NCBI GenBank assembly: GCA_016296945.1
Contig: JAEDHQ010000001.1
Span: forward strand, 1-61,148
Reading direction: 5' to 3'
DNA: 61,148 nt
Source of the DNA: Bacilli bacterium
GTDB lineage: Bacteria > Bacillota_I > Bacilli_A > ML615J-28 > CAG-698
A program made the position numbers and the translations under genes. Shown in pieces: positions 14,851 to 42,395 of the stretch (the stretch's first letter is position 1; each line of letters begins with the position of its first letter). A model generated the notes under the pieces. That model saw only the letters and a list, made by a program, of their open reading frames with translations, ran no database searches and was not told the DNA's origin.

Positions 14851-14975
14851 AAACCCCTATCCTTTCATCTAGACTTTTACTATCGGTATTGGAATTTCAC
14901 CAATTCAGCAATTTAGTTTCTAAATCGCTCGCGGACTATTACCACCGGTCTGGAATTACACCATGCCCCGAATAT
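14851..14975 (-). promoter_or_regulatory. FMN riboswitch (RFN element) in the ribU leader
   Basis: The minus-strand RNA reads uucggggcauggugu aauuccagaccgguggu aauaguccgcg ... uuggugaaauuccaauaccgauaguaaaagucuagaugaaagga. This matches the RFN consensus blocks GGGGCAGGGUGAAAUUCCCGACCGGCGGUAGUAAAGC and CCGACAGUGAAAGUCUGGAUGGGAGA. The SD (aaaggauagggg) lies immediately after the aptamer, which is consistent with translational control. Confidence 0.8.
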
Positions 14976-16927: not shown

Positions 16928-17027
16928 ATCATTCACCACCAACATAATTATATTACAATGATTTTAGTTTTTCAAATATATCTTTATTTATTCGACAAAT
17001 TATGATAAAATACCAACAGGTGATTTT

Positions 17028-24166: not shown

Positions 24167-25896
24167 TAATGTTCACCTCCTTTATTAGAGGTTTCATCCA
24201 CTTGTAAAGAATAAATATTATGATATACTTCACAATTGTCTAATAATTCTTGATGCTTACCAAAACCTACTACTTTTCCTTCATCAATTACTAAAATCCA
24301 ATCACAATTCATTAAGGAAGTAACGCGACTTGAAACTAAAAAAGTAACCGAATTAGGAAAGACGCTGGCAATATTCTTTCTGATAGTAGCATCTGTTTTA
24401 TAATCTAAGGCACTGGATGCGTCATCTAAAATGAAGATATCTGGTTTAGCATACAAAGCACGTGATAATAAAATCCGTTGTTTTTGACCACCACTTAAAT
24501 TTGTTCCTCGTGATGATAACATACTTTGATAACCTTGAGGCATTTTTTCAATAAACTCACTTGCACATGCTAATGTAGCACATTCTTTTATTCTTTCTAG
24601 ATCGACTTCTTTTCCAAATGCGATATTTTCTATAACTGTATCAGACATTATTGTATCATTTTGTAAAACAACACCAATTCGATTTCGATATTCCTCAATG
24701 TCTAAACTCTTAATATTTCTACCTTCAATAAGTATTTCACCACTATCAACGTCATAAAAACGCAACAATAAGCGAATAATTGTACTTTTACCAGCACCTG
24801 TTGGTCCAATAATCCCGATTCTTTCACCTTTTTTCAACTTAAAATTAATATCTTTTAAAAACATTGAATTATCTTCTTTTTTTAGATAAGAAAATCCTAC
24901 ATTATTAAACTCAATAAAATACTTTGTATCATTATTATCAATATTTTCATCTCTTAAAAGTTCTTTCGGTAAATGTAAAATCATTTTAATTCTTCTTGCC
25001 GATGCCACTGCTTTCGAATGAGTAATAAAAATTCGTCCTAAAGTAACCATTGCATTAAGAATGATTGTGAAATAAGAAGTAAATGCAATAATGGTTCCTA
25101 CTTTTATTTCACCATTATTAACTCGATATGCTCCAAAAAAGATGACAATTACTAAACCTATATTTAATATTGCGTTAATTAAAGGATTAGTTAAGGCCAT
25201 ATTAATTCCGGCTTTCTTTTCCCGTTCATATAATGTTTCTGTTACAATATTAAATCTTTTTTGTTCATATTCTTCTTTTGATAAGGCCTTTATTACTCTA
25301 ATTCCAGTAATGTTTTCTCTGATTACTCTTACCATATCATCGTTAGAAGTTTGCACATCACTATAAATCTTTATTCCTCGTTTTGAAACAATCACAATTA
25401 CTACTACTATTACAGGTAATGTTGCTAATAATACTAATGTTAATGGGGCATCAAGCGTAAATGTAATAAAAATCCCTCCTATTAAAAGAATCGGAGCGCG
25501 TGTTCCAATTCGTTGAATCATAGTTAACATTTGATGCACATAATAAGTATCATTAGTCATCCTTGAAATCAGTGTGGGAATCGTTAATTTATCGACTTGA
25601 GATAATGATAAATCATTTATTTTTTTAAACAAATCATGTCTTAATGTTGTTGTAACTAAACGGGATACAATTGCGGCCATAGTATTAGCAATAATGTTTC
25701 CAAATAAGCCAACAAAAGCACATAAAATCATTACTAAACCTAACATTACCATTGTCTTTGGATCATCAACATCATTGATAATATACGCTAATATCCAAGG
25801 CATAATTAAGTCAACAATTGTCCCTATAATTTTAATTATCATTCCTATTGTTATTCTTAATGTATAAGGCTTGACATATTTTAAAACTTCATCCAT
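24166..25896 (-). CDS. ABC exporter, fused permease-ATPase (heterodimer partner 1, YheI/BmrC-like)
   Basis: Walker A GPTGAGKST, signature LSGGQKQR, Walker B FILDDASSALD. Its stop overlaps the partner's start (ATGA at 24166). Confidence 0.9.
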   Translation of the reverse strand: MDEVLKYVKPYTLRITIGMIIKIIGTIVDLIMPWILAYIINDVDDPKTMVMLGLVMILCAFVGLFGNIIANTMAAIVSRLVTTTLRHDLFKKINDLSLSQVDKLTIPTLISRMTNDTYYVHQMLTMIQRIGTRAPILLIGGIFITFTLDAPLTLVLLATLPVIVVVIVIVSKRGIKIYSDVQTSNDDMVRVIRENITGIRVIKALSKEEYEQKRFNIVTETLYEREKKAGINMALTNPLINAILNIGLVIVIFFGAYRVNNGEIKVGTIIAFTSYFTIILNAMVTLGRIFITHSKAVASARRIKMILHLPKELLRDENIDNNDTKYFIEFNNVGFSYLKKEDNSMFLKDINFKLKKGERIGIIGPTGAGKSTIIRLLLRFYDVDSGEILIEGRNIKSLDIEEYRNRIGVVLQNDTIMSDTVIENIAFGKEVDLERIKECATLACASEFIEKMPQGYQSMLSSRGTNLSGGQKQRILLSRALYAKPDIFILDDASSALDYKTDATIRKNIASVFPNSVTFLVSSRVTSLMNCDWILVIDEGKVVGFGKHQELLDNCEVYHNIYSLQVDETSNKGGEH

Positions 25897-26321: not shown

Positions 26322-28073
26322 TTATTTCATTATATAATATAGCGAATACCAGTTAGGGCGTTCTTTTGCATACAAACTATTTTTCATAACTTGAATGGAA
26401 TAATCTAAATTAGTTCTTTCAAATAGTTCTGTTATTCCTAATACTCTTAAATCATCATCAAATTTATCGATTAATTTATTTCTTTCTTTGTTTTCTAATG
26501 GCATTGTAACTAATTCTAAATATCTTAGGCCTATTTCGACAATATTTAAGTGTTTTTTTATTAATTCATTATCATATTTTGCTGCTTCAAGTGCCTTATT
26601 TATGATATTACGTGCTTTTATTATTATTTCACCACTAAATAAATCACTATCAGCATCATCATATAACCATAATGTTTTATTATTGATGGCATCTTCAAAT
26701 AAATATATATATTCTTGAATATACTTTGAAGCATTTCCATAATAATGATCACAAAAATAACTGATAATATCTTCTAATTTTTCATCACTTCGCATCATTT
26801 TGGCTGCGACATAACTCTTTAGTTCATCGAAGTAACCTTTTCCTCCATTTGAAAAGTTCCCTTGCATTAATAAACCCTTAACACCAATGCGCTTATATAA
26901 TTCAATATTTTTTGCCATACTTCTAAAATTTGGAAAAGGAAGTAAATAATTTCGATAATTTACAGCATAATCCCAAATATATAGGCGATTTGTTAGTTTA
27001 CTCCACCCAATTAAATCACTTAGAAAACTTGCATTACGTGATGATTGATCCCTTTTTGCACCTTCTTCAATTGATTCAGCCCATGAACATTCAATGTTTG
27101 TTAAGCGAACTATTACATTTTTATGAACTTTTAAGCCAACAGGAGGCTTTCTTGAATATTGATAAGCAAATGTGTGAATTAAAACATCAGGATATTCTTC
27201 TTCTAAAGCACTTGCAATTCTATTTACAAATCTAATTATTGAAGCACTTTGACTTCCATGAGCTTCATCGAAAGCTTTACAATGTTCACATTCACAAGCC
27301 ATTTTAATAAAATGGCCCATCCATTCATCTTGTGCAACACTAAAAACCTTACAATCTGGATTATCTTTAATCCATTGTTTTACTCGTTTTAAGCATAATT
27401 GAAATACTTCTTCATTTGATAAACATAATTCAGTATGTTCACTAACTCTTTTGCCATCTATATATGAAAAATATTCTGGATGTGTATCAAAGTATTCCTT
27501 TGGATTGATTAAATCCGCAAAAGAATGATGGAAATTATACCATTTTGTTTTTCCACCTAAGCGAACTGATAGATCAGCTAAATTACTATTAAGCATATTC
27601 ATTGATGCATATTTACCATTAAAGGCATCTGTGAAGTAACATTCACGATATTCAAAAGGAAGCTCATAAAAGATATCTTCTTTTACATCAATTTTTGTCA
27701 CGTTATCATAGACAATCATTTCACTATCTAAGGCGCTTAACTTTATAAAACGTTCTAAAAAATAATAAACTGCGTATAAAACGCCTCGTGAAGACTTAGA
27801 AACAAAACATAAATCATCATTATCACGAACAATTGCAAAGCCTTCATCGCTTAAATTAGCAACATATTGATGATAATCTTTACCTCTAACATTTAATCCT
27901 AAATGAATTTCTTTCCCACGACGATCTATTTTTGATGAAAATAAAGGAACAAGACACTTTGTTGATGCATACAGATATTTTTGTAATTCATTAGCCGCAA
28001 AACGTACACACTCAGAAGCATCCATTTCATAACAAATATGATAAGCTGTTTTTTTATTATTTAATATTAGCAT
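26322..28073 (-). CDS. Putative glycoside hydrolase of the DUF4838/GH20-like class. The assignment is weak.
   Basis: 583 aa, no signal peptide. The N-terminal region (VRFAANELQKYL...GFAIVRD...GVLYAVYYFLE) resembles the N-domain of GH20/DUF4838 proteins. No catalytic motif confirmed by eye. Confidence 0.35.
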   Translation of the reverse strand: MLILNNKKTAYHICYEMDASECVRFAANELQKYLYASTKCLVPLFSSKIDRRGKEIHLGLNVRGKDYHQYVANLSDEGFAIVRDNDDLCFVSKSSRGVLYAVYYFLERFIKLSALDSEMIVYDNVTKIDVKEDIFYELPFEYRECYFTDAFNGKYASMNMLNSNLADLSVRLGGKTKWYNFHHSFADLINPKEYFDTHPEYFSYIDGKRVSEHTELCLSNEEVFQLCLKRVKQWIKDNPDCKVFSVAQDEWMGHFIKMACECEHCKAFDEAHGSQSASIIRFVNRIASALEEEYPDVLIHTFAYQYSRKPPVGLKVHKNVIVRLTNIECSWAESIEEGAKRDQSSRNASFLSDLIGWSKLTNRLYIWDYAVNYRNYLLPFPNFRSMAKNIELYKRIGVKGLLMQGNFSNGGKGYFDELKSYVAAKMMRSDEKLEDIISYFCDHYYGNASKYIQEYIYLFEDAINNKTLWLYDDADSDLFSGEIIIKARNIINKALEAAKYDNELIKKHLNIVEIGLRYLELVTMPLENKERNKLIDKFDDDLRVLGITELFERTNLDYSIQVMKNSLYAKERPNWYSLYYIMK

Positions 28074-29518: not shown

Positions 29519-32020
29519 TTATTTAAGAATGAAATCAATCTTGACACTACATTCACCAGCAACAGTTGGAGTTTCAAAGCTTAAGTAGTATTGTGTAGCT
29601 GTACCACTTGAGACCATTGATTGAATTAAATTTTTAGCATTCGTATCTAAACAGTTATCATGAACACCAATAATATAATCATATGAAGAGGTAAAAGTAG
29701 ATAAATTCTTACCGCTTGCTAAGAATCCGACTACTTCATATAGTCCTAATTCATTATTATACTTTAGAAAAATTCTATCCCAGTATAATCCAGATACAGT
29801 TCCTGCTTTATCGCTTGACCCAAGCATAACATAATTGCCATTTCCATAACTTGTGTTATATCTTGTTGCGGTAATTGATTCGGACACATTTGTTAAGTAT
29901 ATTTCTTTTACAAATTCTGAAGTGTCTCCATCTTGATATGCTTTGATTGCAATTTCTAAAATATTACGTGTGACAGAAAAACTTGAAAATTCATAAATGT
30001 AATTACCTAAGTTTTCACTATCTTCATATTTTACATATGCTATTACACTTATATCTTGATTATACTTTTCTTTTGGAATATTATAAACAACAACATGAAA
30101 TGTGGTATTACTACCTGTTATAACCTTTTGAATTAAGTTGTTTCCATTAATAGTTGTACTATTACTTCTAAATGCTGCAATAAATTCACTTGCAGAATGT
30201 GTTCCCACAGCAAGAAGAAAACCATGTTCAACTGATTCTTCTAAAGTATCAATTGTAGCACTAAATTTAAGTCCTTGACGTTCGCCTGTTGTTCTAACAC
30301 TTGCTCCATCAATTAATTCTAATTGATATTTATCATTTAAAGAATATATTGTTTTTTCTCCTAATGTATTAGAATATGATAATGCTCGAATACCATAATT
30401 ATAACTACCGCTATCACTATCAGTCCAAGTAAAACTACTATTACTTCCACCAACAATATCAATCAATTCACTAGAATCAAATGTGACTTCACTACTACTT
30501 CTATAGATTGCATAGAATTTTGCATTGTCTAATCTATCCCATGTTAATGTTTTACCATTAACGATAAAATTATTCACTTTTCCTAAATGAATTGGATTAA
30601 TTGATTTAATTTCTGGTTGAACTACTTTAATTTTCCAACAGTTTGTTCCTAAGTGAGATGCTTGGAGGGCTGATTTTGAAGTTCCACCATCATAATACTT
30701 ACGTAAATGATCAAAATTATAAAGGCTTGCTCCACTAACATTTTCTAATGTTGTAAGATAGTTTAATTGATTATATAATTCATTTGAGTCAGTATACCAA
30801 GAAGTTGAAGTATATGTATCAGGCCAATATAAACCAATTCCTGAGTATAAATTAACATCTAAATTCTTTACTACTTTGTCCCACCAACCCATTACTTTTT
30901 TATATCCAGCAACAGAATGATCAATTGCCCAATAACTTTGTGGCATGATGTAATCAATCCAGCTTTTACAACACCAATATACAGTATCAGAGAATAAATA
31001 TGATGAATAATGAGTTTGTCCACCAGTACTAGAACCATCTGTAATTGGCCAACCATTGCCTTCATATGTTACTTCCCCACTACCATTTTTATATATTCCA
31101 GTTGGAGCAACGCCAATTTGGATATATTTGTTATTTATTTCATTAAAACTATTTACAGCACTATTTAATTGCTTAAAAAACAGATTACATTGAACACGGC
31201 GCCAATCTGCTTTATGCAACGCATTAGTTACTGTATAACTTTTACGATAGTGTTCATATTCAGCTTTATCTTCAGCACTTAAACTACTAAAATTATTACA
31301 AAAATTAACATATAAGTTATTATCTGCTTCATCTAAAATAGTAGTAGTTCCTGATGTTTTTCCATTTGCACCTAAATCAATATAGAAATAATCATCAAAA
31401 TGAACAGCATCAACATCATATCGTGAAATAAATTCAATCACTGTATCAACTACATGATCTCTTACTTCTTTGATTCCTGGATTTAAGATTGCTCTATCAT
31501 CATATACTAAGATATTATCTGAATTACTAGCAGAATTTAGTGGATAACTAGTATATTTATTAGCAACTACTTCAGCACTAATTGCACCTGAATTTGTAAT
31601 TCGATAAGGATTCATCCAAGCATGAAATTCAATTCCCCGCTTATGACATTCTTCAATAAGCCAAGCAAGAGGATCAAATGTATTAAAATTCACTTTACTC
31701 CATCCTGAATAAACAGGATTAATGTCTGATTTATATAATGCATCATTCATTTGACGCACATGAAAGATTAAAGTGTTGAGATTACTTGCCTCTAAAACAT
31801 TAAAAATATATTCCATATTTGTTTTAAAACTAGTTTCACTAGTATAATTTACTATTGATGCATCAGTAATAGGCGTAACCCAGACTGCTCTTAATTCACT
31901 TGCAGGATCAACATAATTATATGTAGTTGCTTTTGTTTCCACATTTACAGTTTCTAAAAAACAACATATTGATAATATCAACAATAAAAAACTTAGGACT
32001 TTTTTAACTATCTTCTTCAT
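29519..32020 (-). CDS. Secreted glycoside-hydrolase-like family 10 (GHL10/DUF187, YngK-like) protein with C-terminal beta-sandwich/carbohydrate-binding region
   Basis: Signal peptide. LRAVWVTP...LNTLIFHVRQMNDALYKSDINPVYSGW, the characteristic start of the GHL10 TIM-barrel. 833 aa. AGGAG RBS. Confidence 0.6.
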   Translation of the reverse strand: MKKIVKKVLSFLLLILSICCFLETVNVETKATTYNYVDPASELRAVWVTPITDASIVNYTSETSFKTNMEYIFNVLEASNLNTLIFHVRQMNDALYKSDINPVYSGWSKVNFNTFDPLAWLIEECHKRGIEFHAWMNPYRITNSGAISAEVVANKYTSYPLNSASNSDNILVYDDRAILNPGIKEVRDHVVDTVIEFISRYDVDAVHFDDYFYIDLGANGKTSGTTTILDEADNNLYVNFCNNFSSLSAEDKAEYEHYRKSYTVTNALHKADWRRVQCNLFFKQLNSAVNSFNEINNKYIQIGVAPTGIYKNGSGEVTYEGNGWPITDGSSTGGQTHYSSYLFSDTVYWCCKSWIDYIMPQSYWAIDHSVAGYKKVMGWWDKVVKNLDVNLYSGIGLYWPDTYTSTSWYTDSNELYNQLNYLTTLENVSGASLYNFDHLRKYYDGGTSKSALQASHLGTNCWKIKVVQPEIKSINPIHLGKVNNFIVNGKTLTWDRLDNAKFYAIYRSSSEVTFDSSELIDIVGGSNSSFTWTDSDSGSYNYGIRALSYSNTLGEKTIYSLNDKYQLELIDGASVRTTGERQGLKFSATIDTLEESVEHGFLLAVGTHSASEFIAAFRSNSTTINGNNLIQKVITGSNTTFHVVVYNIPKEKYNQDISVIAYVKYEDSENLGNYIYEFSSFSVTRNILEIAIKAYQDGDTSEFVKEIYLTNVSESITATRYNTSYGNGNYVMLGSSDKAGTVSGLYWDRIFLKYNNELGLYEVVGFLASGKNLSTFTSSYDYIIGVHDNCLDTNAKNLIQSMVSSGTATQYYLSFETPTVAGECSVKIDFILK

Positions 32021-32141
32021 AGTTTTTTACTCCTGACAACTCTTCAAAATTCACTTCACCAGTATTACTAAAAGTAATGATATCTTCTTCTATTTCAATA
32101 ATTTCAATAAATGGTACTTGATATTCTTTTTTCATTTTCAT
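32004..32141 (-). CDS. Candidate 45-aa acidic small protein (MKMKKEYQVPFIEIIEIEEDIITFSNTGEVNFEELSGVKNYEEDS)
   Basis: Strong RBS AAGGAGAAAGG 8 nt upstream of the ATG at 32141, placed 18 nt after the upstream lipoprotein stop. The 3' end overlaps the start of the GHL10 gene by 17 nt. It is below the size cutoff of the ORF track. Confidence 0.3.
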   Translation of the reverse strand: MKMKKEYQVPFIEIIEIEEDIITFSNTGEVNFEELSGVKNYEEDS

Positions 32142-32158: not shown

Positions 32159-33424
32159 TTAGTATGGTTTTGTCCAGTTAGGATCATTGATTTGATAGGT
32201 TACTACGACTATTTCATCGTGCATTTCAACTTTTATATATTTATAATCCGCTTCAACATTATTTACAATTAGTTTAAAGTTGTTGCTTAACACTAATCCT
32301 TCATTTAATGTAATAATTGTTTTAATATAGATATAATCTAATGGCTTATCTATTCTAGCTTGATAGCGATCAGAACAACTACTAACAATATAATTAGTTG
32401 TGTCTAAAGTAATCTTAATTTCTCTAATGATGTTATCATTATAATTAAATGTGAGTGTTTTATTAGTTAATGTATACCCATCTTCTACTTCTTCACCATT
32501 TAATTTTAAAATGAATCTTGGAGAAAATAAACTATCATCAATAATTTCTATTGCAATTTCATAGAAATAGTTATTAACCTGATATGATAGTTTTAACTTT
32601 AAATCATTAATTGTAACTAACTTATTTTCAAAATCAATCTTTAAGTCTATTTCCTTGATTTTGTTATCCTTTATAGTTAAAGATATTTTATCATCTTCAA
32701 TATGATAATCAACTTGATTAACTACTGAATCGTTTACTTTTAATATTACATCTTCACTTAACTTTGCTTCATCATTGATTGTAATTATTATATTTATGAC
32801 TTCATAATCTAAAGTCGAAATAATCTTTGCTTGATATGTCGCATCATCGCAGTAAATAACATATTTTTCATAATCAAGTTCTAAAGTTATAGTTTTTATT
32901 TCTTCTTTAAATGCTTCTATTATTTGGTTACTAAATATTCCTGGATTACTGACTGCTAAATTATAAATACTTTCTGTATATAATTTATCACTATAACGGA
33001 ATTTGATTTCTTTCTTACTTTCATATTTATAATATAATCTAACACTTACATATTTTTTAAAGTTATCTTCAAGATCATTATCAAATAAATATGAATAATT
33101 ATTTGAATCGTTTAAAATAATATTATTATTGTATTCTATATTTCCGACGATAAAATCATTTTTATCAATATCATTTTTATAACTAATTAAAATTCCAAAA
33201 GATATAATCTTTTCATTTAATTCCTGATTATATTCATCACAATCTGATATATTATTATATTTGAAATCAATTTGAAGTCCTTTTTCTTGATTATTAATTT
33301 TAATATCTATTTGTTCAAAACCATTTGTTTCTATTGATTTTATTCTTTGATCATTACACCCAAGAATAAATGATCCTAATAGTATAAACAATAAATAAAT
33401 AGCAATATATCTCTTTTTCATCAT
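32159..33424 (-). CDS. Lipoprotein of unknown function with internal repeats
   Basis: Lipobox LGSFILGC-N. 421 aa, rich in N/K/I/D with a repetitive beta-rich composition. First gene of the GHL10 operon. Confidence 0.5.
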   Translation of the reverse strand: MMKKRYIAIYLLFILLGSFILGCNDQRIKSIETNGFEQIDIKINNQEKGLQIDFKYNNISDCDEYNQELNEKIISFGILISYKNDIDKNDFIVGNIEYNNNIILNDSNNYSYLFDNDLEDNFKKYVSVRLYYKYESKKEIKFRYSDKLYTESIYNLAVSNPGIFSNQIIEAFKEEIKTITLELDYEKYVIYCDDATYQAKIISTLDYEVINIIITINDEAKLSEDVILKVNDSVVNQVDYHIEDDKISLTIKDNKIKEIDLKIDFENKLVTINDLKLKLSYQVNNYFYEIAIEIIDDSLFSPRFILKLNGEEVEDGYTLTNKTLTFNYNDNIIREIKITLDTTNYIVSSCSDRYQARIDKPLDYIYIKTIITLNEGLVLSNNFKLIVNNVEADYKYIKVEMHDEIVVVTYQINDPNWTKPY

Positions 33425-33548: not shown

Positions 33549-34253
33549 ATGTTTATAATAGAAATGGCAAAATTAAAAATTAAAATTAATAACCGTTTTT
33601 CTTTTTTAGAAAAACTTTGCAAAGACTATATTATTGATGATGAAACTTATGATTTTGAGGTTTCAGTAACTGATGATGATATTAATAAAGAGAAAAATGC
33701 CAGTGATGGTAACTTTTCTGTAGGTTATTTAGAAAGTATTTGTATTTATCGTAAGATATCAGAAAAAGTTCCCCAATATAATTGTATATTATTACATGCA
33801 GCAGTAATTAAAGTTGATAATGATGCATATGCTTTCTGTGCAAAATCTGGTACGGGTAAAACTACTCATACAAAACTATGGATGCAATTATTAGGTGATA
33901 GAATGTCATATATTAATGGCGACAAACCATTAATTAGAATTATTAACGATCAAGTATATGCTTTTGGAACTCCATGGAATGGAAAAGAGCAATATGGTAC
34001 TAATTCTTATGCAAAGTTAAAAGCGATTGCTTTTATTGATCGTGATATTACAAATTCTATTATTCATCTTCCAAAGATTGAAGTGTTACCCCGAATTATT
34101 CACCAAATATTATTACCTAAAGATGAGGATAATTTATCTAAGACTTTTGAGATATTAAATGAAGTTGTTGGTAAAACAAATACTTATTTATTAAAATGCA
34201 ATATGGATATAGAAGCGGCACAAATAGCCTATACACAAATGCGAAAGGACTAA
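33549..34253 (+). CDS. P-loop protein resembling the HPr kinase/phosphorylase C-terminal domain (HprK-related kinase family)
   Basis: 234 aa. P-loop AKSGTGKTTH preceded by LLHAAVI and followed by NGDKPLIRII, which is the same arrangement as HprK-C GxSGxGKS ... D.. Has its own promoter and AAAGAGG RBS. Translationally coupled to the next gene. Confidence 0.4.
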   Translation: MFIIEMAKLKIKINNRFSFLEKLCKDYIIDDETYDFEVSVTDDDINKEKNASDGNFSVGYLESICIYRKISEKVPQYNCILLHAAVIKVDNDAYAFCAKSGTGKTTHTKLWMQLLGDRMSYINGDKPLIRIINDQVYAFGTPWNGKEQYGTNSYAKLKAIAFIDRDITNSIIHLPKIEVLPRIIHQILLPKDEDNLSKTFEILNEVVGKTNTYLLKCNMDIEAAQIAYTQMRKD

Positions 34254-34255
34254 CT

Positions 34256-34885
34256 ATGGATAATATCACTAGACGAGATAATCAATTAGCTTATATTACA
34301 GATGAAAAAGTAATTAAACAAGCAAAAGAAACAAGAAAAAAATTACAAATATTTAATAATACTGATTGGTCAGATTTTGATAAGTTAAAAATCCTTGCTT
34401 CTAAAATTTTAGGAAAAAGTGAAAATCCATCAATCACTCCCCCTTTTTATTGTGATTATGGTTTTAATATTGAAGTAGGTAAAAACTTTTACGCTAATGC
34501 TTTTTGTACAATTTTAGATGTAGCTAAAGTAAAAATTGGTGATAATTGTTTATTAGGTCCAAATGTATCAATCTATACTGCTGGGCATCCTATTCATCCA
34601 ATTGCTAGAAATAGTTCTTATGAATATGGTAAAGTAATTACAATCGGTGATAACGTATGGATAGGAGGTAACTCTACAATCTGTCCTGGTGTAAAAATAG
34701 GAAATAATGTTGTGATTGGCGCTGGAAGTGTTGTTACAAAAGATGTTCCAGATTGGACTGTGGCCGCGGGAAATCCGTGTAAAGTTTTAAGAATTATTAC
34801 TGATGATGATAAAAGAAAATTATATAAAAACGAAGAAATTGATGATGAGGCTTGGAAAAACATATGTTTATCTTTTAATCTTTAA
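34256..34885 (+). CDS. Hexapeptide-repeat sugar O-acetyltransferase (maltose/galactoside O-acetyltransferase, Maa/LacA family)
   Basis: Left-handed beta-helix repeats GDNVWIGGNSTICPGVKIGNNVVIGAGSVVTKDVP. N-terminal Mac-type helical domain. I prefer the start at MDNITRR (34256, AAGGA RBS), 2 nt after the upstream stop. Confidence 0.8.
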   Translation: MDNITRRDNQLAYITDEKVIKQAKETRKKLQIFNNTDWSDFDKLKILASKILGKSENPSITPPFYCDYGFNIEVGKNFYANAFCTILDVAKVKIGDNCLLGPNVSIYTAGHPIHPIARNSSYEYGKVITIGDNVWIGGNSTICPGVKIGNNVVIGAGSVVTKDVPDWTVAAGNPCKVLRIITDDDKRKLYKNEEIDDEAWKNICLSFNL

Positions 34886-34952: not shown

Positions 34953-34992
34953 CAATAACAAAAAATAAGTTCCTTGATTTCAAGGAACTTAT
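34953..34992. terminator. Bidirectional terminator. It is strong on the minus strand, where it ends the flotillin operon.
   Basis: aaataagttccttga-tt-tcaaggaacttattt. The minus strand is followed by TTTTTTG. Confidence 0.6.
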
Positions 34993-35079
34993 TTAATATT
35001 ACAATACTTATTCTTCCTGTGGGCTTTGCAAACACTATACTTTCCAACTATTATTACTTAATAAAATAATTAGTATGAA

Positions 35080-36603
35080 CTATTCTTTCTTTTCATTATT
35101 AGAAATCAATTTACCACCTAAATAACCTGCTAATAAAGATTTAACATCGATTCCTGTTGCTTTTTCTAATCCTTCAAAAATTTGAGTACCGTTTTTTGAT
35201 ATTTCTTCTGTTAATTTAGCAGTGTTTCCTTCACCATACATCACAATTGAATCAATCTTGCTCATTGCTTCTGCAACTGGTTTACTGTAAGCATTAACAA
35301 TCTCTGGTAAAACTCCTGAGTCCAAAATTAATTGCAATGTTGCTGCTTCGCCATATTGTTTCATCGCATCTGCTTTTGCTTTGATGGCATCTGCTTCAGC
35401 CTTCCCTTTTGCTTCAATTCCAGCCGCTTCAGCTAGTGCTGCTTCCTTCAAAGCATTTGCTTTTGCAATTTGTGCACTTGCTTCGGCTTCGGCTTGAATT
35501 TTTAAAGCTTCTGCTTCTTTTTGTTTTTTTACTTTATCTGCTTCAGCTTTAATCTTTTGCATTTCTGCTTCTTGTTCTAATTCATATTTTTTTGCTTCAG
35601 CTGCTTTTTGGCGAGTAAACAATTCTGCTTCTGCTTCTTGTTGGGCAGCATATTTTTTTGCTTCCGCAACCTTATTAATTTCTGCAGCTAATTTCTTTTC
35701 TTGAATTTCTACTTCACGATTTTCTAATTCAACCATTCTCTCACGCTTTGCAATATCAGCATTTATTTGCGCAATATTTATTTCTTGCAATCTCTTTTGC
35801 TCTTCAATTTTATAGGCAGCATCTGCTTGGGCTTTAGCAGTATCCGTTTGTTGTTTTAATTCAGATTCTTTTAAAGACAATATTGTATTTTGTTCAATAA
35901 TCTTTTGATTTGCTTCAACTCTACTTCTATTTGCTGCTTCTTCAGCTGAAGATTTTGCAATTGTAACATCACGATCAGCATTTGCTTTCGCAATAGCAGC
36001 ATCTTTTGATATTTGTGCAATATTGTCAATACCTAAATTTTCAATCACATGATTATCATCAGCAAATGATTGAATATTAAAGTTTACAACTTCAATCCCC
36101 ATTTTAGCCATATCTGGTACAACATTTTCTTTAACAGAGTTGGCAACACCTTGGCGATCTTGAACTAACTTCTTAATATCAACAGTACCAACAATTTCAC
36201 GCATATTACCTTGCAATACTTGTTGAACTTGTTTAATTAAATTTTCTTCAGACATATTTAAAATTGCTTCAGCCGCTCTTTCTAATAATGCTGGATCAGA
36301 TGAAATTTTTAAGTTTGCAACGCCATCTACTCTAATATTTATAAAATTTGAAGTAGGAATTGCTTCATCTGTTTTAATATCAACTTGGAATACTCTTAAT
36401 GATAATTTATCTAGTCTTTGTAAAAAGGGAATTCTAAATCCTGCCTTACCAATTAAGATTTTTCTTTTTCCCCATCCTGAAATAATAATTGCTGTATCTG
36501 GTGCTGCTTTTACATATCCAGTTATAAAAAATACAATCAACAATGCAATGATTGCTAAACCAGCAATAATCCAACCGCCTGTACCGATTAAAAATAAAAA
36601 CAT
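35080..36603 (-). CDS. floT: Flotillin-like SPFH/Band-7 protein (FloT/YuaG-type)
   Basis: N-terminal TM anchor. SPFH domain. Long E/A/K/Q-rich coiled-coil (EAEA...AKKYELEQEAEMQKIKAEADK). 507 aa. AAAAGGAG RBS. Confidence 0.8.
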   Translation of the reverse strand: MFLFLIGTGGWIIAGLAIIALLIVFFITGYVKAAPDTAIIISGWGKRKILIGKAGFRIPFLQRLDKLSLRVFQVDIKTDEAIPTSNFINIRVDGVANLKISSDPALLERAAEAILNMSEENLIKQVQQVLQGNMREIVGTVDIKKLVQDRQGVANSVKENVVPDMAKMGIEVVNFNIQSFADDNHVIENLGIDNIAQISKDAAIAKANADRDVTIAKSSAEEAANRSRVEANQKIIEQNTILSLKESELKQQTDTAKAQADAAYKIEEQKRLQEINIAQINADIAKRERMVELENREVEIQEKKLAAEINKVAEAKKYAAQQEAEAELFTRQKAAEAKKYELEQEAEMQKIKAEADKVKKQKEAEALKIQAEAEASAQIAKANALKEAALAEAAGIEAKGKAEADAIKAKADAMKQYGEAATLQLILDSGVLPEIVNAYSKPVAEAMSKIDSIVMYGEGNTAKLTEEISKNGTQIFEGLEKATGIDVKSLLAGYLGGKLISNNEKKE

Positions 36604-36621: not shown

Positions 36622-37047
36622 TTACTTAATTATTTTCCTTATATAATGCTTTATTTTTCGAAAAATTCTATTTCTTACTCTTTTCTTATAATACCTAATA
36701 TATTCTTTATTATCATTGCTTACATATGTTTCCCCACGATAAAAACCATCTACAACACCAATTATCATCTCATCAGTAACATTATATTCTTTTATAAATT
36801 GATTATCACCACATAAGACATAACTATCTTTTTTAACCCCAATTATTCGATGCAAAACATAAGTTTTATCTTTACGCTGATAAAGGATGACATCATATTT
36901 TTTAAGTCTTTTCGTTGGTTTAACTAATCTAACTGTATCAAGTCTTTGCCTAATCATTGGCATCATACTTGTCCCAATTGGTGTTGCAATATAATAACCA
37001 TTTTTTTCTATTAATTCTTTATATGAAATACTATTCAAGAATACCAC
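36622..37047 (-). CDS. Small soluble S26-family (signal-peptidase-like) serine peptidase with an apparent Ser/His dyad. It uses a GTG start.
   Basis: Box B GTSMMPMI. Box D YVLHRIIGV, with His where bacterial SPase I has the catalytic Lys (as in SipW/Sec11). Box E LCGDNQ. No TM anchor. The GTG start overlaps the PqqD gene end by 17 nt. Confidence 0.5.
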   Translation of the reverse strand: MVFLNSISYKELIEKNGYYIATPIGTSMMPMIRQRLDTVRLVKPTKRLKKYDVILYQRKDKTYVLHRIIGVKKDSYVLCGDNQFIKEYNVTDEMIIGVVDGFYRGETYVSNDNKEYIRYYKKRVRNRIFRKIKHYIRKIIK

Positions 37048-37297
37048 TCTTTTCTAATTTTTCAATAAATTGATTAATATGTTTGCTTGCTTCACTTTCT
37101 AAAACATCATATTCTGCTAGCATCTTCTTTAGTAATTCTTCCTTTTCAATTCCTTCAGCCAAATTCTTCCATAAGAATGCTCCCGTTTCATTTAAGGTAA
37201 TCATTCCTTTAAATTGCAAACTTGCTTTTCCAACAGGAACTACTGCATAACTTCCTGCAACTTCACGTAACATAAAACCTTCTTTTATTTTAATCAT
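37031..37297 (-). CDS. PqqD-family protein (RiPP precursor-peptide recognition element, RRE)
   Basis: 88 aa. ...ITLNETGAFLWKNLAEGIEKEELLKKMLAEYDVLESEASKHINQFIEKLEKSGILE is a near-textbook match to the PqqD consensus (LNeTGafIW ... YdV ... fl..L...gli). Its ATG overlaps the upstream gene's stop as ATGA. Confidence 0.75.
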   Translation of the reverse strand: MIKIKEGFMLREVAGSYAVVPVGKASLQFKGMITLNETGAFLWKNLAEGIEKEELLKKMLAEYDVLESEASKHINQFIEKLEKSGILE

Positions 37298-38472
37298 ATT
37301 TTTACTCCTGTTATTTCTTTAATCATATTAATTTCCTCAACTTTTTTGTAATTAACATTTTGAATAGTTTGATATGTTCTCTTATGAGTCTTAAAATTAA
37401 ATAATCCTTTTACTAACCTTTCAAACCAAAACCAAGGTAATAAGATTGGAATTTTTGATAAAATTGGATTTCTTCTTTTCATTACTTTAAATGGTGGAAA
37501 TAGTTTCTTTATAATCAAATGTTTTTTACTTTTTTCTAAATCATCTTTGTTTTCTAAAGAATTAACCGCTGAATTTTCAACAGTTCCATATGTTCCACAT
37601 TCAAGTATATAATTTAAAACTAAGTTAATATCTTCTTCTTTGATTTTATCTATTTTTCCTTTAAAAATATAATCACTAATAGCAATTAATGTACAAGAAA
37701 ATTTATCTAACTCTAAAGACTTAAGTTCTGAATTAATATAATTAAAATCTAATTTCTTTTGTTCTAAATAATAATATAAATCTATAATTGTACGAAGACC
37801 TGTTCCCCCGTGGCCAAAGTGTTTAGCCGCATGAACAATCATAAATACAAAGAAATCTTCATCACTTAGTTCATATAAATATTGTTTATTTTCAGCTAAT
37901 CTCACACGATCCCAAATGTTATCATAATAATTAACACCATATGATTCATCAATCATTCCCCGATGCAACTCAATATTCATATAAGGCTTTTTTATGTAAT
38001 TGTCGTGATTGCCACCCACATTATCTACAGTATAACCTATTTCTTTTAACACATTACCAGCTTTTTTTAAATCATCAATTGGAATTAAGATATCTAAGTC
38101 AGCCATTGATCTATATTGTAAATCAGGATATAGTTTACGAATTAAAGCTCCTTTTAATGGCATATGTTTGATTTTATAATGTTCCAATTCACTACATATA
38201 ATCTCTAGTTCTCCATCCTGAATTAATGATTTATATGCATTAATTGTAGCAATTTTTTTAAACGTTTTAAATATGTCTTGTTCTTCATCGATTATTAATT
38301 GTTTTAATCCTAGATATGTAATATATTCAAGACTATGAAACTTAGCATATTTTATTATTCTTTCTAAATTAAAACTATCTAAATCATCAATATGAATTTC
38401 TTTTCTAAGAATAACACTTTTTATTATCTTTAAAAAATTTAATTTATTAGGATCTCTATTCATTATACCCAT
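37294..38472 (-). CDS. Nucleotidyltransferase-family protein of the 'uncharacterised nucleotidyltransferase' (NTP_transf_5-like) type
   Basis: About 390 aa. Central GALIRKLYPDLQYRSMADLDILIP...HRGM region resembles the Pol-beta-like NTase core (G[SA]...D.D). This family is recurrently found next to PqqD proteins in Firmicutes lasso/RiPP loci. The probable start is the ATG at 38472 (GGATGG SD). Confidence 0.5.
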   Translation of the reverse strand: MGIMNRDPNKLNFLKIIKSVILRKEIHIDDLDSFNLERIIKYAKFHSLEYITYLGLKQLIIDEEQDIFKTFKKIATINAYKSLIQDGELEIICSELEHYKIKHMPLKGALIRKLYPDLQYRSMADLDILIPIDDLKKAGNVLKEIGYTVDNVGGNHDNYIKKPYMNIELHRGMIDESYGVNYYDNIWDRVRLAENKQYLYELSDEDFFVFMIVHAAKHFGHGGTGLRTIIDLYYYLEQKKLDFNYINSELKSLELDKFSCTLIAISDYIFKGKIDKIKEEDINLVLNYILECGTYGTVENSAVNSLENKDDLEKSKKHLIIKKLFPPFKVMKRRNPILSKIPILLPWFWFERLVKGLFNFKTHKRTYQTIQNVNYKKVEEINMIKEITGVKI

Positions 38473-39353
38473 GGCAACCATCCACTATCAACATTTTCAG
38501 TATATTCATAATTATCTAAAAAAGAGAAGTCACAGATAATTTCATTTTCATCTTTTGTTAATTCATATTTTTGCGCATTGATTGTAAAAAAGTTATTAGT
38601 ATAAATACATATGTTATTATTATTAGATTCAATCTTATATAACATTGTTTGTAAATCTGGATCGAAATCAGCTTCGATAAAATATATTTTTTTAATCTTT
38701 GCAAGAAATTCTTCTACTTCTTCGGTTTCTTCAAGTTTTTTAGATTTATTAATTTCTTTTCTTATTATTGTAATCTTTGAACCAAATAACTCTAAATCCG
38801 TAAATGACATTTTATTTTTAGGTAGTACTGTAACATTAATAATTAAATTTATTATTGGGTAATCTTTTAAATATAAATTTATTGTAGTTGAACCTTCTTG
38901 TAAAGCAATAATTTTATTTCCTTCTACCACACAAATTTTATCATCATTTACTTCTACAATTATCTCTAAATCGTTTGTTGCTTGAATATTGAATTCTTGT
39001 ACTTCGTCTACTTTTAATTCATAGTTTAAATTATCGCTTGTGATTTCTAAACTGCTTATTACTGTTACATTTATAGTTTCATTAATACTTGAATCACTAA
39101 TTAGAAATAATGTGATTTCACAACTTCCTGTTTTATATGCTTTAATTATTCCATTCTTAAAAATTGCCACTTCTGGATTACTATTAGCTGCAATAACTGT
39201 TTCATTAGCTGATACTTCATATCTTATCTTGACTTCTTCGCCAACTTCTAATGTTATTTTTTTATCTTCTTCTTGCAAATTAAGATATTTTTCTTCTTTA
39301 CAAGAAATTAAAAAACTTAATAAGCACAAAATAACTATTAATAATTTCTTCAT
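38463..39353 (-). CDS. Lipoprotein with two Big_2 (bacterial Ig-like) domains
   Basis: Lipobox FLISC. Big_2-like blocks (TLEVGEEVKI...NPEVAIFKNGIIKAYKTGSCEITL and a second copy). AGGAGA RBS. Confidence 0.55.
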   Translation of the reverse strand: MKKLLIVILCLLSFLISCKEEKYLNLQEEDKKITLEVGEEVKIRYEVSANETVIAANSNPEVAIFKNGIIKAYKTGSCEITLFLISDSSINETINVTVISSLEITSDNLNYELKVDEVQEFNIQATNDLEIIVEVNDDKICVVEGNKIIALQEGSTTINLYLKDYPIINLIINVTVLPKNKMSFTDLELFGSKITIIRKEINKSKKLEETEEVEEFLAKIKKIYFIEADFDPDLQTMLYKIESNNNNICIYTNNFFTINAQKYELTKDENEIICDFSFLDNYEYTENVDSGWLPWV

Positions 39354-39437: not shown

Positions 39438-39460
39438 ATATAAAATAATGCCTAATTAAG
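39438..39460 (-). terminator. Intra-operon hairpin (partial terminator/attenuator) between the MutS-like pair and the downstream five genes
   Basis: taatgcc-ttaatt-aaggcatta followed on the minus strand by a T-rich tract. A possible TATAAA/-10 and AGGAGA RBS for the lipoprotein gene follow. Confidence 0.35.
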
Positions 39461-39463
39461 GCA

Positions 39464-40900
39464 TTATATTTCTTTTATTTTATATTTATTTGTTTCATCA
39501 CTTGTTTCATATAATTTGACATCACTTACAAAATTTCTTCTTTCATCAAGAATTGTAATTAGATGAGTAACATCAATCCATGTTACATTAATTAAAGAGA
39601 AGTAATTTAAGATATCAAACAACGCACGTTTACCATCTTCTGCAAATGTTGATTGGAAAATCTCATTTATAATTACTAGGGATTTATCATTTACTTTATC
39701 GATTATTTCTTTAATATCGATTACTTCTTTTTCGAAACGACCGCCAACATCTGTATCTTTTTCTTCTCCTGAAAAGATTGTCGTAACGCTTTCTTTAATT
39801 TCCACTTTTGCTTGATCACAAGCTACAAATAATCCATTTTGGAAAAAGATTTGGTTAATTCCGATTGTTCTTAGTAAGACTGTTTTTCCGGTATTATTAG
39901 ATCCAACCACTAAAACACTTTGCTTATTAGCAATTGAGATATTATTTCCATATATAGGAGCAGAATATCCTTCGATAATATATTTCATTGAAAGGTATAT
40001 ATCTTTGGCATTTTTATAATCTGTCTCTTTTGCGATTTCAGGAAAAGAACAATCAATTTTTCTTTCACCTAATGAATCATATAAAGAATTTGCAAATTCA
40101 AAGAAAATAAATTCATCACTAAAATAGCTTATTTCATCATAAAGACTTTCATAAATATCTTCTACAATTACAACAACACGATTAAATGAATCAATCACAA
40201 TTCGTGAAAAATCATCTTTTACTTTTGGATTAATTTCAATCTTGCCGTCACTTCTTTCTTTTTTTCTAAATATACTTACCTTTTCACTAGTATATTTACC
40301 ACTGCATAATATAAACTTATTATCAATTGGCATTAATTTATCATCAAGATTAGTATAAAACGCAAAAGCAGAATGTTGTTCAATTATTTCTTTAATCACT
40401 TTTTGAAGTTTTTTAAAATAAACATTTTCAATTCGGTTATTGATTTTCTTTGCTAACTCTTTTAATCCAACTGATGAAGGAGAGTATGTTACAAATAATT
40501 CATTTAAGCGAATATATATTTCAATTAGTTTATTAATATCTTGAGCATAATCTTTAAGCATCATCGTTGTCTCAGAAATCTCCATTTCGGATTTAACTTT
40601 CAATTTTGCACGACTAGAACGGGTAGCATTATAATCACTATAGCATTTATTAAGATTAAATGATTCCCGACCTAACCCATAATAAAGACTGCGATTATAC
40701 ATCATATCACGCATTACACTTTGACGATATTTAATTGTTTCTTCATCAGTACAAATACTACCTAAAATATCTAATATTTTTTCTTGTTTTCCTTTATCAA
40801 CAAAGACATAGCGAACAATTGAATCTATTTGAAGATCGTGTAATGCATTGTTGACGGATCCGATTTTTTCCTTACCAAATGGATATAATAAACTACTCAT
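39464..40900 (-). CDS. MutS-family domain-V ABC-ATPase protein, paralog B (no mismatch-recognition domain I, no Smr)
   Basis: Walker A/MutS signature VLVVGSNNTGKTVLLRTIGINQIFFQNGLFVACDQAKV (compare MutS GPNMGGKSTYMRQ..LAQ.G.FVPA). Walker B region VIINEIFQSTFAEDG (compare MutS LDELGRGTSTYDG) has N-E instead of D-E. 478 aa. Confidence 0.68.
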   Translation of the reverse strand: MSSLLYPFGKEKIGSVNNALHDLQIDSIVRYVFVDKGKQEKILDILGSICTDEETIKYRQSVMRDMMYNRSLYYGLGRESFNLNKCYSDYNATRSSRAKLKVKSEMEISETTMMLKDYAQDINKLIEIYIRLNELFVTYSPSSVGLKELAKKINNRIENVYFKKLQKVIKEIIEQHSAFAFYTNLDDKLMPIDNKFILCSGKYTSEKVSIFRKKERSDGKIEINPKVKDDFSRIVIDSFNRVVVIVEDIYESLYDEISYFSDEFIFFEFANSLYDSLGERKIDCSFPEIAKETDYKNAKDIYLSMKYIIEGYSAPIYGNNISIANKQSVLVVGSNNTGKTVLLRTIGINQIFFQNGLFVACDQAKVEIKESVTTIFSGEEKDTDVGGRFEKEVIDIKEIIDKVNDKSLVIINEIFQSTFAEDGKRALFDILNYFSLINVTWIDVTHLITILDERRNFVSDVKLYETSDETNKYKIKEI

Positions 40901-42395
40901 TACCTTTCTTCCTTTCTAATAATTGTTGTTTTGTTAAACCGTGTTTATACAAAATATCATCGACATATGATAATAACTGTTTTTCTACTTTCTTTATTTT
41001 GTGTGTTCTTATATTAGATTTTCCTTCCATTACTACCGGTGTAAAAAAACCAATTCTCGAATCATGAATTTCCTCAAAAATTTTATATTGATGCGTTACA
41101 TACATTACTTTAGCTTGGGTATTACCAATATCATTAAGTAATTGTTTTGTATAAACGCACGCTTTTTCTTCACTAGTTGATGAAAATGTTTCATTTAAAA
41201 AAGCAATAGAATCGGGTCCGAAATGAGATTTAATTATATCAAGACGTTTAATTTCATCACGAAGACGTCCTTCACCAAAACTATAGTTTTCTTCATTTGG
41301 AAAATGTGTACATATATATTTTACAGGATATACTTTAGCACTTTTTGCAAACATATACCCACAAGTCATAAAGTATACATAATTTGCCCCAATACTACGA
41401 AGATAACAAGTTTTACCACCACTATTAACTCCTAAAACAAAAGATATATTTTCTTTCCCATCAATATAGAAATCATTAGGAATAACATCAATTTTACTTA
41501 CTGTTAAACTAACATCATATGCATCTGTAATTGAAGTTTTGTTTTCTTCATTCACCACTACCTTACAAAAAGGAATACCTTGTTTATTAACTTTTGTAAA
41601 CATTGTTTTTAAACTTAATAAATATTTAAATTCACTAACTAAGCTACTTAAATCAGTTACTTTTTGATGATTTGATTCGTAAAATTCAGCAATTTTTTCA
41701 TAAGTTGTTTTATCTTGTAAAGATATCTCATATAAAAAATATGGATTTACTTCTTTTTTCATAATTTGACGAGGGGTTTTAACTAATTCAATATTTAATC
41801 CTTTTACAATATCTAATAATTCATCTTCTAAATTAGTTTTTTTATCAAAAGTGATTTTATAATATGGTGCCCCTTCATGAAATTCCGCATTAAATTCAAA
41901 ATGACTTGTAATATAATCATATAAATTTTTTACTTCATTTCTTAAAGTTTTTACTTCATTATCATCGAAAATGCTATCAATTTTTACAATTAAATCAGTT
42001 AATCCTTTTGATTTTACATTTAATTTTATTAACACATCTTTTGTAATTGTTAGGAATTGATAATAATGATATATATACATTATTAAAAATATACGTCTTT
42101 TGATGTTTTCGGTTGCTTCTCTTAAAGAAATAAAGCGACCAACTAAATCAGTTAAACGATAATATAAATTTTCTAATAAACCATCCTTATCATTTAATAA
42201 ATCTTCAAAAATTCCTTGCCGATATAATAATGATTCTTTTGATGGAATAAGTTTCATAATTTCTTGCATTTCATCAACATCACTGTAATTATCAAAACAA
42301 CATTCTAATAATTTTGTTATTTTTAAATCGCTAAAGACTGCATCATCTAATTTACTAACTGCTTCATCATTTTTCCATAATAAACTAAAGGCCAT
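40893..42395 (-). CDS. MutS-family domain-V ABC-ATPase protein, paralog A
   Basis: Walker A/MutS signature ISFVLGVNSGGKTCYLRSIGANYVYFMTCGYMFAKSAKV. Walker B region IAFLNETFSSTSEEK, also N-E. 500 aa. AAAGGAGGA RBS and a TGaTATACT extended -10 upstream. 8-nt overlap with paralog B. Confidence 0.68.
   Translation of the reverse strand: MAFSLLWKNDEAVSKLDDAVFSDLKITKLLECCFDNYSDVDEMQEIMKLIPSKESLLYRQGIFEDLLNDKDGLLENLYYRLTDLVGRFISLREATENIKRRIFLIMYIYHYYQFLTITKDVLIKLNVKSKGLTDLIVKIDSIFDDNEVKTLRNEVKNLYDYITSHFEFNAEFHEGAPYYKITFDKKTNLEDELLDIVKGLNIELVKTPRQIMKKEVNPYFLYEISLQDKTTYEKIAEFYESNHQKVTDLSSLVSEFKYLLSLKTMFTKVNKQGIPFCKVVVNEENKTSITDAYDVSLTVSKIDVIPNDFYIDGKENISFVLGVNSGGKTCYLRSIGANYVYFMTCGYMFAKSAKVYPVKYICTHFPNEENYSFGEGRLRDEIKRLDIIKSHFGPDSIAFLNETFSSTSEEKACVYTKQLLNDIGNTQAKVMYVTHQYKIFEEIHDSRIGFFTPVVMEGKSNIRTHKIKKVEKQLLSYVDDILYKHGLTKQQLLERKKGNE

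Follow-up and report, generated by a model that had tools for sequence, protein, structure and literature searches.

What would a soluble peptidase of the signal peptidase type do beside a discrete RiPP (ribosomally made, post-translationally modified peptide) recognition element (RRE)? The question is raised by a stretch of 61,148 nucleotides from a Bacilli bacterium (contig JAEDHQ010000001.1; the window, at its full length), whose minus strand carries an RRE gene that runs into the gene of a short peptidase. Our preferred answer is that the two genes are part of a split RiPP cassette of the linear polyphosphorylated peptide (LPP) type, a reading to which we give a probability of roughly 0.78, and that the peptidase is very probably an RRE-dependent cytoplasmic leader peptidase for Y-x-x-P peptides. 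Judged by sequence, the locus would work like the LPP system and yet represent a diverged sister lineage outside the characterized LPP group.

The LPP of Paenibacillus alginolyticus is a RiPP whose cluster encodes the precursor LppA, the HprK-like kinase LppK, the discrete RRE LppB, the SipW-like peptidase LppS, the MsbA-like exporter LppD and the NTP transferase LppN (Popov et al., Nat Commun 2026;17:6633; PMC13381572). The LppA leader has the consensus YxxPxVLxHQxIxFETxxS. LppS is needed for leader removal, which takes place after T-1 and requires the presence of LppB; the S29A, H68A and D93A variants of LppS are inactive, and the F-E-T residues before the cut affect cleavage. Several phosphates are put on core Ser3 by LppK, while no activity was detected for LppN (PMC13381572).

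By analogy, the precursor of the window, a 45-amino-acid (aa) peptide encoded at 32004-32141, would supply an N-terminal leader with a Y-x-x-P-x-I motif, which the 88-aa RRE would take up as an added beta-strand. With the RRE-leader complex docked at its N-terminal helix, the soluble SipW-like peptidase would cut the leader by means of Ser27 and His66, with Glu87 as the third residue, at a predicted site between Ile-Ile and Thr-Phe-Ser. An HprK-fold kinase (33549-34253) would phosphorylate the conserved serine two residues past the cut, probably prior to cleavage, and an NTP_transf_5 protein may elaborate the phosphate further, giving an acidic linear peptide of 23 residues. Translation of the peptidase from TTG 37038 would be coupled to termination of the RRE through an 8-nt overlap. 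RRE dependence, cleavage position and phosphorylation are carried over from LppA, LppK, LppB and LppS, and the function proposed for this lineage draws on sequences, structure models and the comparison with LPP. The observations behind it are the folds, conservation of the catalytic and leader-binding residues and of the gene neighbourhood, the fusions, and a family of precursors in which the leader is conserved and the core hypervariable.

The peptidase: active site, fold and start codon

Both open reading frames (ORFs) were found on the minus strand where the original prediction had placed them. The peptidase is 138 aa long when read from TTG 37038 (36622-37038), and the longest ORF, from GTG 37047, encodes 141 aa; residues are numbered here on the 141-aa form unless stated otherwise. 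The boxes G-T-S27-M-M-P, L-H66-R-I-I-G and G80-D81-N were present as announced, and in an alignment of 39 homologues the columns G25, S27, M28, P30, D52, L65, H66, R67, G80, D81 and E87 were invariant. Across 48 aligned sequences, the catalytic serine and histidine were kept in 48/48 each and the third position was Glu in 44 and Asp in 4, and Ser27, His66 and Glu87 are the predicted catalytic residues of the window peptidase. S29, H68 and D93 of LppS align to S27, H66 and E87, with identical Ser-His spacing (39 residues), although the third residue is Glu here and Asp in LppS. Aligned over 90 aa, the window peptidase and LppS have 32% identity (E 2e-8), and LppS scores 63.7 bits against the family hidden Markov model (HMM). 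A non-catalytic, signal-peptidase-like chaperone, which as Streptococcus pyogenes SipA would hold the RRE-peptide complex uncut, is hard to reconcile with three positions that are invariant or conservatively replaced throughout the 48 sequences and with a homologue, LppS, that is catalytic and whose S/H/D mutants are dead (PMC13381572); we consider it very unlikely.

The AlphaFold2 (AF2) model of the window peptidase (pLDDT 92.4) has a LexA/signal-peptidase fold; its alpha1 helix (residues 9-16) is N-terminal, and its two C-terminal helices are strongly basic, 13 Lys or Arg residues lying within the last 30. A single-sequence search of PDB sequences returned noise only, and a fold search was required. 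As foreseen, no membrane anchor was found, the top 19-residue Kyte-Doolittle window having a mean of 0.49; among the 87 peptidases of the family, the median of this maximum was 1.0 and a value of at least 1.6 was reached in 3/87.

Profiles of the S26 and S24 families did match the window peptidase, but weakly and under their curated cut-offs. Peptidase_S24 (PF00717) was the sole Pfam match (E 0.0054; 16.9 bits, against a gathering threshold of 23.3), which would be in line with a self-cleaving regulator of the LexA/UmuD/cI type. MEROPS S24 is defined by a Ser-Lys dyad together with a PF00717 score above the gathering threshold, whereas the general base here is an invariant His; there is no DNA-binding domain and the gene lies in a RiPP cassette, leaving such a regulator extremely improbable. 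The archaeal-type signal peptidase I model TIGR02228 matched at 2.2e-7 (30.9 bits; cut-off, 51.85) and the SipW model NF046067 at 3.6e-6 (26.7 bits; cut-off, 190). These weak matches, together with several secreted proteins encoded close by, would be expected of a specialized secretory SipW-like signal peptidase serving neighbouring lipoproteins or secreted proteins, to which the PqqD gene would be adjacent by accident. However, the protein has neither a transmembrane anchor nor a signal sequence, which would place its active site in the cytoplasm, all scores are far under the curated cut-offs, and a PqqD gene is adjacent in 36/43 loci with complete flanks (see below) and fused in some proteins, so that we hold a secretory role to be most improbable as well. 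The same absence of an anchor and the same low SipW and signal peptidase scores bear out the earlier statement that this is not a housekeeping signal peptidase. With SipW/Sec11 (MEROPS S26B) the window peptidase shares the fold, the Ser-His pair and the S-M-x-P, H-R and G-D-N boxes, but it lacks the curated score and the N-terminal anchor that places an S26B active site outside the membrane, it has the extra basic C-terminal helices, and its proposed substrate is presented by the RRE in the cytoplasm. We thus rejected the secretory or housekeeping SipW, LexA-like and SipA-like readings on the basis of the invariant Ser and His, the lack of an anchor and of a DNA-binding domain, and the conserved linkage to the RRE.

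GTG 37047 had been taken for the only possible start of the peptidase. This was wrong, since TTG 37038 lies in frame three codons downstream, while it is true that no ATG occurs in this frame between the upstream in-frame stop (TAG) and the Ser codon of GTSMMPMI. A Shine-Dalgarno (SD)-like AAAGAG stands 8 nt 5' of TTG 37038, the anti-SD duplex energy is -5.0 kcal/mol for the TTG versus +0.2 for the GTG, and public gene calls favour the TTG (138 aa; 33 contigs) over the GTG (141 aa; 4 contigs). In the closest Bacilli relatives (loci L006, L009, L010 and L011), in-frame stops a short way upstream limit the possible starts, and a TTG with GAGG before it lies about one codon away from where 37038 would fall; this TTG is the sole possible start in L009 and L010, whereas L006 and L011 have a second, upstream TTG without an SD, making the SD-supported TTG likelier. 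Two further loci, L019 and L043, have an ATG near this position. Translation thus almost certainly starts at TTG 37038, as far as sequence can tell. The RRE, which ends ...EKSGILE-TAG, does have its stop inside the peptidase ORF as originally described, but with the TTG as start the overlap is most likely 8 nt (TTGAATAG) rather than 17. Short overlaps (4-14 nt) and TTG or GTG peptidase starts are the rule across the family, and translational coupling from RRE to peptidase is conserved across it.

The RRE, candidate precursors and the distance from known systems

The discrete RRE (37031-37297, minus strand; PF05402, E 9e-15) has the PqqD fold and is of the lasso-B1/LppB type. Among crystal-structure chains, the RRE family profile matched TbiB1 (1.5e-8), PbaB1 (2.9e-7), TfuB1 (8.4e-7) and LppB (3.2e-6), with hits to the PDB entries 5v1u, 9x90, 6jx3 and 9x8z, and it scored lasso B1 and LppB chains above PqqD itself. 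The leader-contact residues N33, Y60, D70 and F74 of LppB align to N36, Y63, H73 and F77 of the window RRE, and in the family (n = 31) these pocket columns hold N in 31/31, Y in 30/31, D in 30/31 and F in 24/31. This RRE had been called an orphan, which it is not: an NTP_transf_5 gene, an HprK-fold kinase gene and a leader-bearing precursor all lie within the window. The NTP_transf_5 nucleotidyltransferase, the LppN analogue, is 392 aa long as publicly called (37294-38472, minus strand; PF14907, 6.6e-50), its longest ORF reaching 38481, and its stop overlaps the ATG of the RRE (ATGA). The kinase, the LppK analogue, is a P-loop protein of the HprK/PEPCK fold (234 aa; 33549-34253, plus strand; Walker A SGTGKTT) that HprK-related NCBIfam models matched only faintly and that carries the public precomputed label PF27840 ScmC; the P-loop was kept in 55/58 of its homologues.

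The candidate precursor, the LppA analogue (32004-32141, minus strand), lies 4.9 kb away from the RRE/peptidase pair. A strong SD (AAAGGAG) precedes it, and public gene calls include it; its ORF shares 17 nt with the beginning of a gene for a GHL10 glycosyl-hydrolase-like protein (the two genes together at 29519-32141, minus strand). Its complete 45-aa sequence is MKMKKEYQVPFIEIIEIEEDIITFSNTGEVNFEELSGVKNYEEDS, which the LppA register divides into a predicted leader, MKMKKEYQVPFIEIIEIEEDII, and a predicted core, TFSNTGEVNFEELSGVKNYEEDS. It has the YxxPxI leader motif, and a conserved Ser follows the Tyr at a distance of 18 residues, as in the LPP consensus, whereas the "HQxIxFET" half of the LPP leader is replaced by acidic and aliphatic residues. 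Because the Tyr-to-Ser spacing is that of LPP, a cut between ...EEDII and TFS... and phosphorylation on core Ser3 are predicted. We hold this prediction tentatively, at slightly less than even odds, and the cut site is an extrapolation since the C-terminal half of the leader differs from the F-E-T of LppA, which matters for cleavage by LppS.

The precursor is a member of a family. We found 31 small ORFs in 26 loci with the common leader MKE.YE.P.[IVLM]EI.E...[DE][IV]I..S followed by unrelated, hypervariable tails of three kinds: acidic with Trp (e.g., ...GLDNDGDVGDWGDEDLG), Cys-rich (e.g., ...GGTCECNQSPAECP), or of only three or four residues (GIYE, SEAE, DAE). Such a pairing of conserved leader and hypervariable core is the classic mark of RiPPs, and YxxPx[I/L/V] is the motif bound by lasso-type RREs. 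Pfam and NCBIfam scans of six of the precursor peptides (E <= 10) gave no match, and a profile search of the public protein set brought up 191 precursor clusters, all short and all annotated as hypothetical. The ...SGLDNDGDVGDWGDEDLG peptide of Coprococcus phoceensis occurs on at least 1000 contigs. Extremely common in public metagenome assemblies (167 to at least 1000 contigs each) are the ...EDVILMSGLDNDGDVGDWGDEDLG-type precursors P0507, P0471, P0497 and P0411, whose hosts include Coprococcus phoceensis and Thomasclavelia; some of them are without the Pro of YxxP, reading YENLEL or YETLEL.

Acidic Trp tails resembling the precursor cores were also seen on lipoproteins or secreted proteins encoded next to the cassette or the precursor (...SGWLPWV, ...DPNWTKPY, ...PKEWNE and ...PENWGE), namely, in the window (38463-39353 and 32159-33424, both minus strand) and in loci L006 (12286-12468, minus strand), L007 (3970-4272), L055 (5927-6238) and L011 (2061-2237, minus strand). 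In L011, the lipoprotein tail EFYDENVDPDGWI is identical at 9/13 positions to the core of the adjoining precursor, EWYDSNVDMGGWI. As signal-bearing ORFs had Trp among their last 8 residues at about the rate expected by chance (71/665), this likeness is an anecdote only.

We compared the locus with the LPP group by means of the sequences in Supplementary Data 1 of PMC13381572, in whose sequence similarity network (SSN) cluster 1, the LPP cluster, is one Bacillales cluster of 126 proteins, and cluster 9 has two members (uncultured Ruminococcus SCH01704.1 and Firmicutes CAG:56) with RREs listed as "others" and precursors as "ND." Common to both systems are a soluble SipW-like peptidase, a discrete lasso-type RRE with its pocket residues kept, an HprK-fold kinase and a PF14907 NTP transferase, to which relatives add an adjoining ABC exporter; a K-B-S-(D)-N gene order in many relatives; and a precursor with YxxPx[V/I], a Ser 18 residues past the Tyr and a hypervariable C-terminal core, with no macrolactam cyclase. 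On the other side, all 87 peptidases were closest to SSN cluster 9 and not to cluster 1, and the window RRE was 37-45% identical to the "others" RREs of clusters 4 and 9, which by pairwise identity puts it outside the LppB clade. D/E-I/V-I/L precedes the predicted cut, compared to F-E-T in LppA; the cores, which contain Trp or Cys, are short (3-25 aa) and acidic, whereas those of LPPs are rich in Gly, Asn, Pro and Lys; and the lineage occurs in gut and rumen Clostridia, Erysipelotrichales-like bacteria and uncultured Bacilli instead of Bacillales, with no lasso cluster alongside.

Phosphorylated lasso peptide clusters of the paeninodin/pseudomycoidin type resemble the locus in having a B1-type RRE for [Y/W]xxPx[L/V/I] and tailoring by a kinase and a PF14907 nucleotidyltransferase. 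They differ from it in that here a serine peptidase would remove the leader and the predicted phosphorylation site is near the N terminus of the core, not at a C-terminal Ser. Neither an Asn-synthetase-like macrolactam cyclase nor a transglutaminase-like B2 cysteine protease was found by Pfam in the window ORFs of at least 500 aa and the cassette neighbours, and we rejected a lasso cluster for this reason.

Conservation of the cassette, gene fusions and alternative chemistries

In a profile search of 1.84 billion representatives, the peptidase family comprised 581 clusters (50% identity) at E <= 1e-30, a number that rose to 3734 at E <= 1e-10. When a single genome for each bacterial or archaeal species was scanned with a narrower alignment, the first being too diverse, 200 relatives were confirmed, most of them from Lachnospiraceae, Ruminococcus, Oscillospiraceae, Erysipelotrichaceae or the metagenome-assembled genomes of uncultured Bacilli and Clostridia, the named isolates including Dorea acetigenes, Lachnoclostridium sp. 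An181 and a Desulfotomaculum. ORFs were called in 87 loci, HMMs were iterated from the window proteins, and gene context was counted in the 43 independent loci whose flanks extend 5 kb or more to either side (full-flank loci), a partner being scored within 5 kb. A PqqD gene accompanied the peptidase in 37/43 of them, 36 having it within 300 nt; the kinase was scored in 31/43, NTP_transf_5 in 24/43 and a recognizable precursor in 13/43. The commonest order was precursor, kinase, RRE and peptidase, then an ABC exporter and/or NTP_transf_5, and L029, L033, L036 and L045 have kinase-RRE-peptidase-ABC-NTP_transf_5, which is the lppK-B-S-D-N order. An exporter was found within 3 kb in 17/87 loci, often 10-25 nt past the peptidase.

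Fusions were found among public proteins: the PqqD domain is N-terminal to the peptidase in P0113, P0141, P0235 and P0239, the peptidase is fused to NTP_transf_5 in P0166, and P0203 and P0216 are peptidase-ABC exporter fusions. At the level of sequence, these architectures support a functional coupling of peptidase, RRE, NTP_transf_5 and exporter. P0203 and P0216 are similar to PCATs (ABC transporters with an N-terminal C39 domain) in carrying the peptidase at the N terminus of an ABC exporter, but a serine S26-like domain replaces the C39 cysteine domain, and the window peptidase is free-standing; by analogy, this architecture would couple leader removal to export. In loci L030 (2873-4963) and L065 (2940-5048), the NTP_transf_5 protein carries a fused TupA-like ATP-grasp domain (PF14305) and the precursor cores are 3-4 residues long and end in Glu (GIYE, SEAE, DAE), which hints at ligation chemistry on a peptide carboxylate. 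A Ruminococcus-type subgroup (L047, L050, L054, L060, L061, L063, L064, L077, L080 and L081) has RRE, peptidase and NTP_transf_5, and neither a kinase nor a recognizable precursor was found within its 10-kb flanks; clustering of small ORFs in these loci returned only shadow ORFs of conserved genes. Either the kinase and precursor genes are elsewhere in this subgroup or there is no phosphorylation in it.

Overall, the idea of a leader protease was strengthened by the homology to LppB/LppS, even though the orphan status and the GTG start that came with it were wrong. A cytoplasmic S26 enzyme beside an RRE likewise proved to be a conserved pair, with aligned catalytic and pocket residues and with fusions, but it is no longer unprecedented.

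Several observations weigh against an LPP-type cassette. The cassette genes of the window are divided among three transcription units and have no adjoining exporter, the closest ABC pair (22376-25896) being 6 kb past the precursor. The peptidases are distant from LppS: the best E value to four cluster-1 sequences was 1.6e-11, and 0/87 reached the cluster-1 edge threshold of E <= 1e-23. The window RRE is only about 20% identical to LppB (E 0.012) and has His73 (codon 37079-37081) where LppB and 30/31 relatives have the Asp that anchors the leader Tyr, D70 of LppB being hydrogen-bonded to it (PMC13381572). As for the substrate, E-D-I-I precedes the predicted cut instead of F-E-T, the Tyr-to-Ser spacing is 19-20 in many Clostridia loci, and a precursor was recognized in only about 30% of the loci. 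Finally, the kinase was not nearby in 12/43 full-flank loci, so phosphorylation may not be universal.

These 12 loci also speak for recruitment and cleavage as in LPP combined with another chemistry, in which the ScmC-like P-loop protein or NTP_transf_5 would add, e.g., a nucleotidyl- or glycosyl-phosphate link and the peptide would perhaps be ligated to a cell-surface polymer. In line with this, LppN activity was not detectable and the end product of the LPP pathway is not established (PMC13381572), the short Glu-ending cores SEAE and GIYE occur in the loci with the ATP-grasp fusion (L030 and L065), and the neighbourhood is rich in surface-glycan enzymes and in lipoproteins with similar acidic Trp tails. 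However, the conserved Ser is in register with the phospho-Ser3 of LppA, the kinase fold and P-loop are conserved, and nothing direct points to any alternative modification; we therefore regard another chemistry as unlikely. We judge it comparably improbable that the family is a gut-abundant sister of the LPP group with a different product, namely, very short acidic peptides (Trp-tailed, Cys-rich, or of 3-4 residues ending in Glu) that, after RRE-guided cleavage, would be coupled to a surface polymer or a partner lipoprotein by phosphate/NTP_transf_5, in some lineages with the fused TupA-like ATP-grasp, an S26-type PCAT coupling cleavage to export in some. If true, the cell wall would be decorated in a teichuronopeptide-like manner by a ribosomal route. 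An LPP-type cassette remains our preferred reading.

Neighbouring genes and what the lineage means

The operon that ends with the RRE and peptidase genes begins with a gene for a 296-aa lipoprotein (38463-39353, minus strand), followed by NTP_transf_5. The lipoprotein ends ...NVDSGWLPWV, and co-transcription and this tail motif are what suggests its link to the pathway. A flotillin (SPFH) gene (35080-36603, minus strand) starts 18 nt past the peptidase stop, with AAGGAG 9 nt before its ATG, and is probably co-transcribed with the peptidase. Its linkage to the peptidase is confined to same-species contigs (L001-L004), and flotillin is probably no pathway component because the linkage is not conserved beyond them. 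The lipoprotein-NTP_transf_5-RRE-peptidase-flotillin unit is bracketed by two terminator-like hairpins. One, palindromic (39445-39467), divides it from upstream MutS-like genes, and the other, of 14 bp (34963-34994, minus strand), lies between the convergent ends of this operon and that of the kinase and acetyltransferase. The latter gene, directly after that of the kinase, encodes a hexapeptide transferase similar to maltose/galactoside O-acetyltransferases (34256-34885, plus strand), which was seen in same-species loci only and could be an accessory tailoring enzyme. The kinase gene converges on the peptidase operon, and divergent from the kinase gene is a unit comprising a 421-aa lipoprotein gene, the 45-aa ORF and the GHL10 glycosyl-hydrolase-like gene.

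The upstream MutS-like genes (39464-42395, minus strand) encode tandem proteins of 478 and 500 aa that have only MutS domain V and whose top NCBIfam match, below threshold, was KamC, the reactivase ATPase of lysine 5,6-aminomutase. Neither they nor flotillin are conserved with the cassette, and we treat them as unrelated to it. The wider neighbourhood (14975-16945 and 26322-28073) encodes DUF4838, a PHP-domain protein and an NAGPA phosphodiester glycosidase; these surface-glycan surroundings recall the capsular-polysaccharide context reported for LPP clusters.

RRE-dependent serine leader peptidases of the signal peptidase fold were first described in 2026, from one Bacillales cluster (PMC13381572), and the present analysis extends the same logic to a larger and more diverged lineage of gut and rumen Bacillota. 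The core of the original prediction was good and has meanwhile been validated in the homologous LppB/LppS system, which makes it less of a surprise; what is new are the size and gut prevalence of the lineage, its precursors, its fusion architectures, and signs that it may be connected with surface glycans and lipoproteins. As the precursors can now be recognized, their leader consensus can be used for genome mining, and abundant candidates from the human gut are at hand, while the RRE-peptidase and peptidase-ABC fusions are possible tools to study or engineer leader removal. For the biological role of LPP-type peptides, this gut-abundant family provides a second and ecologically relevant entry point.

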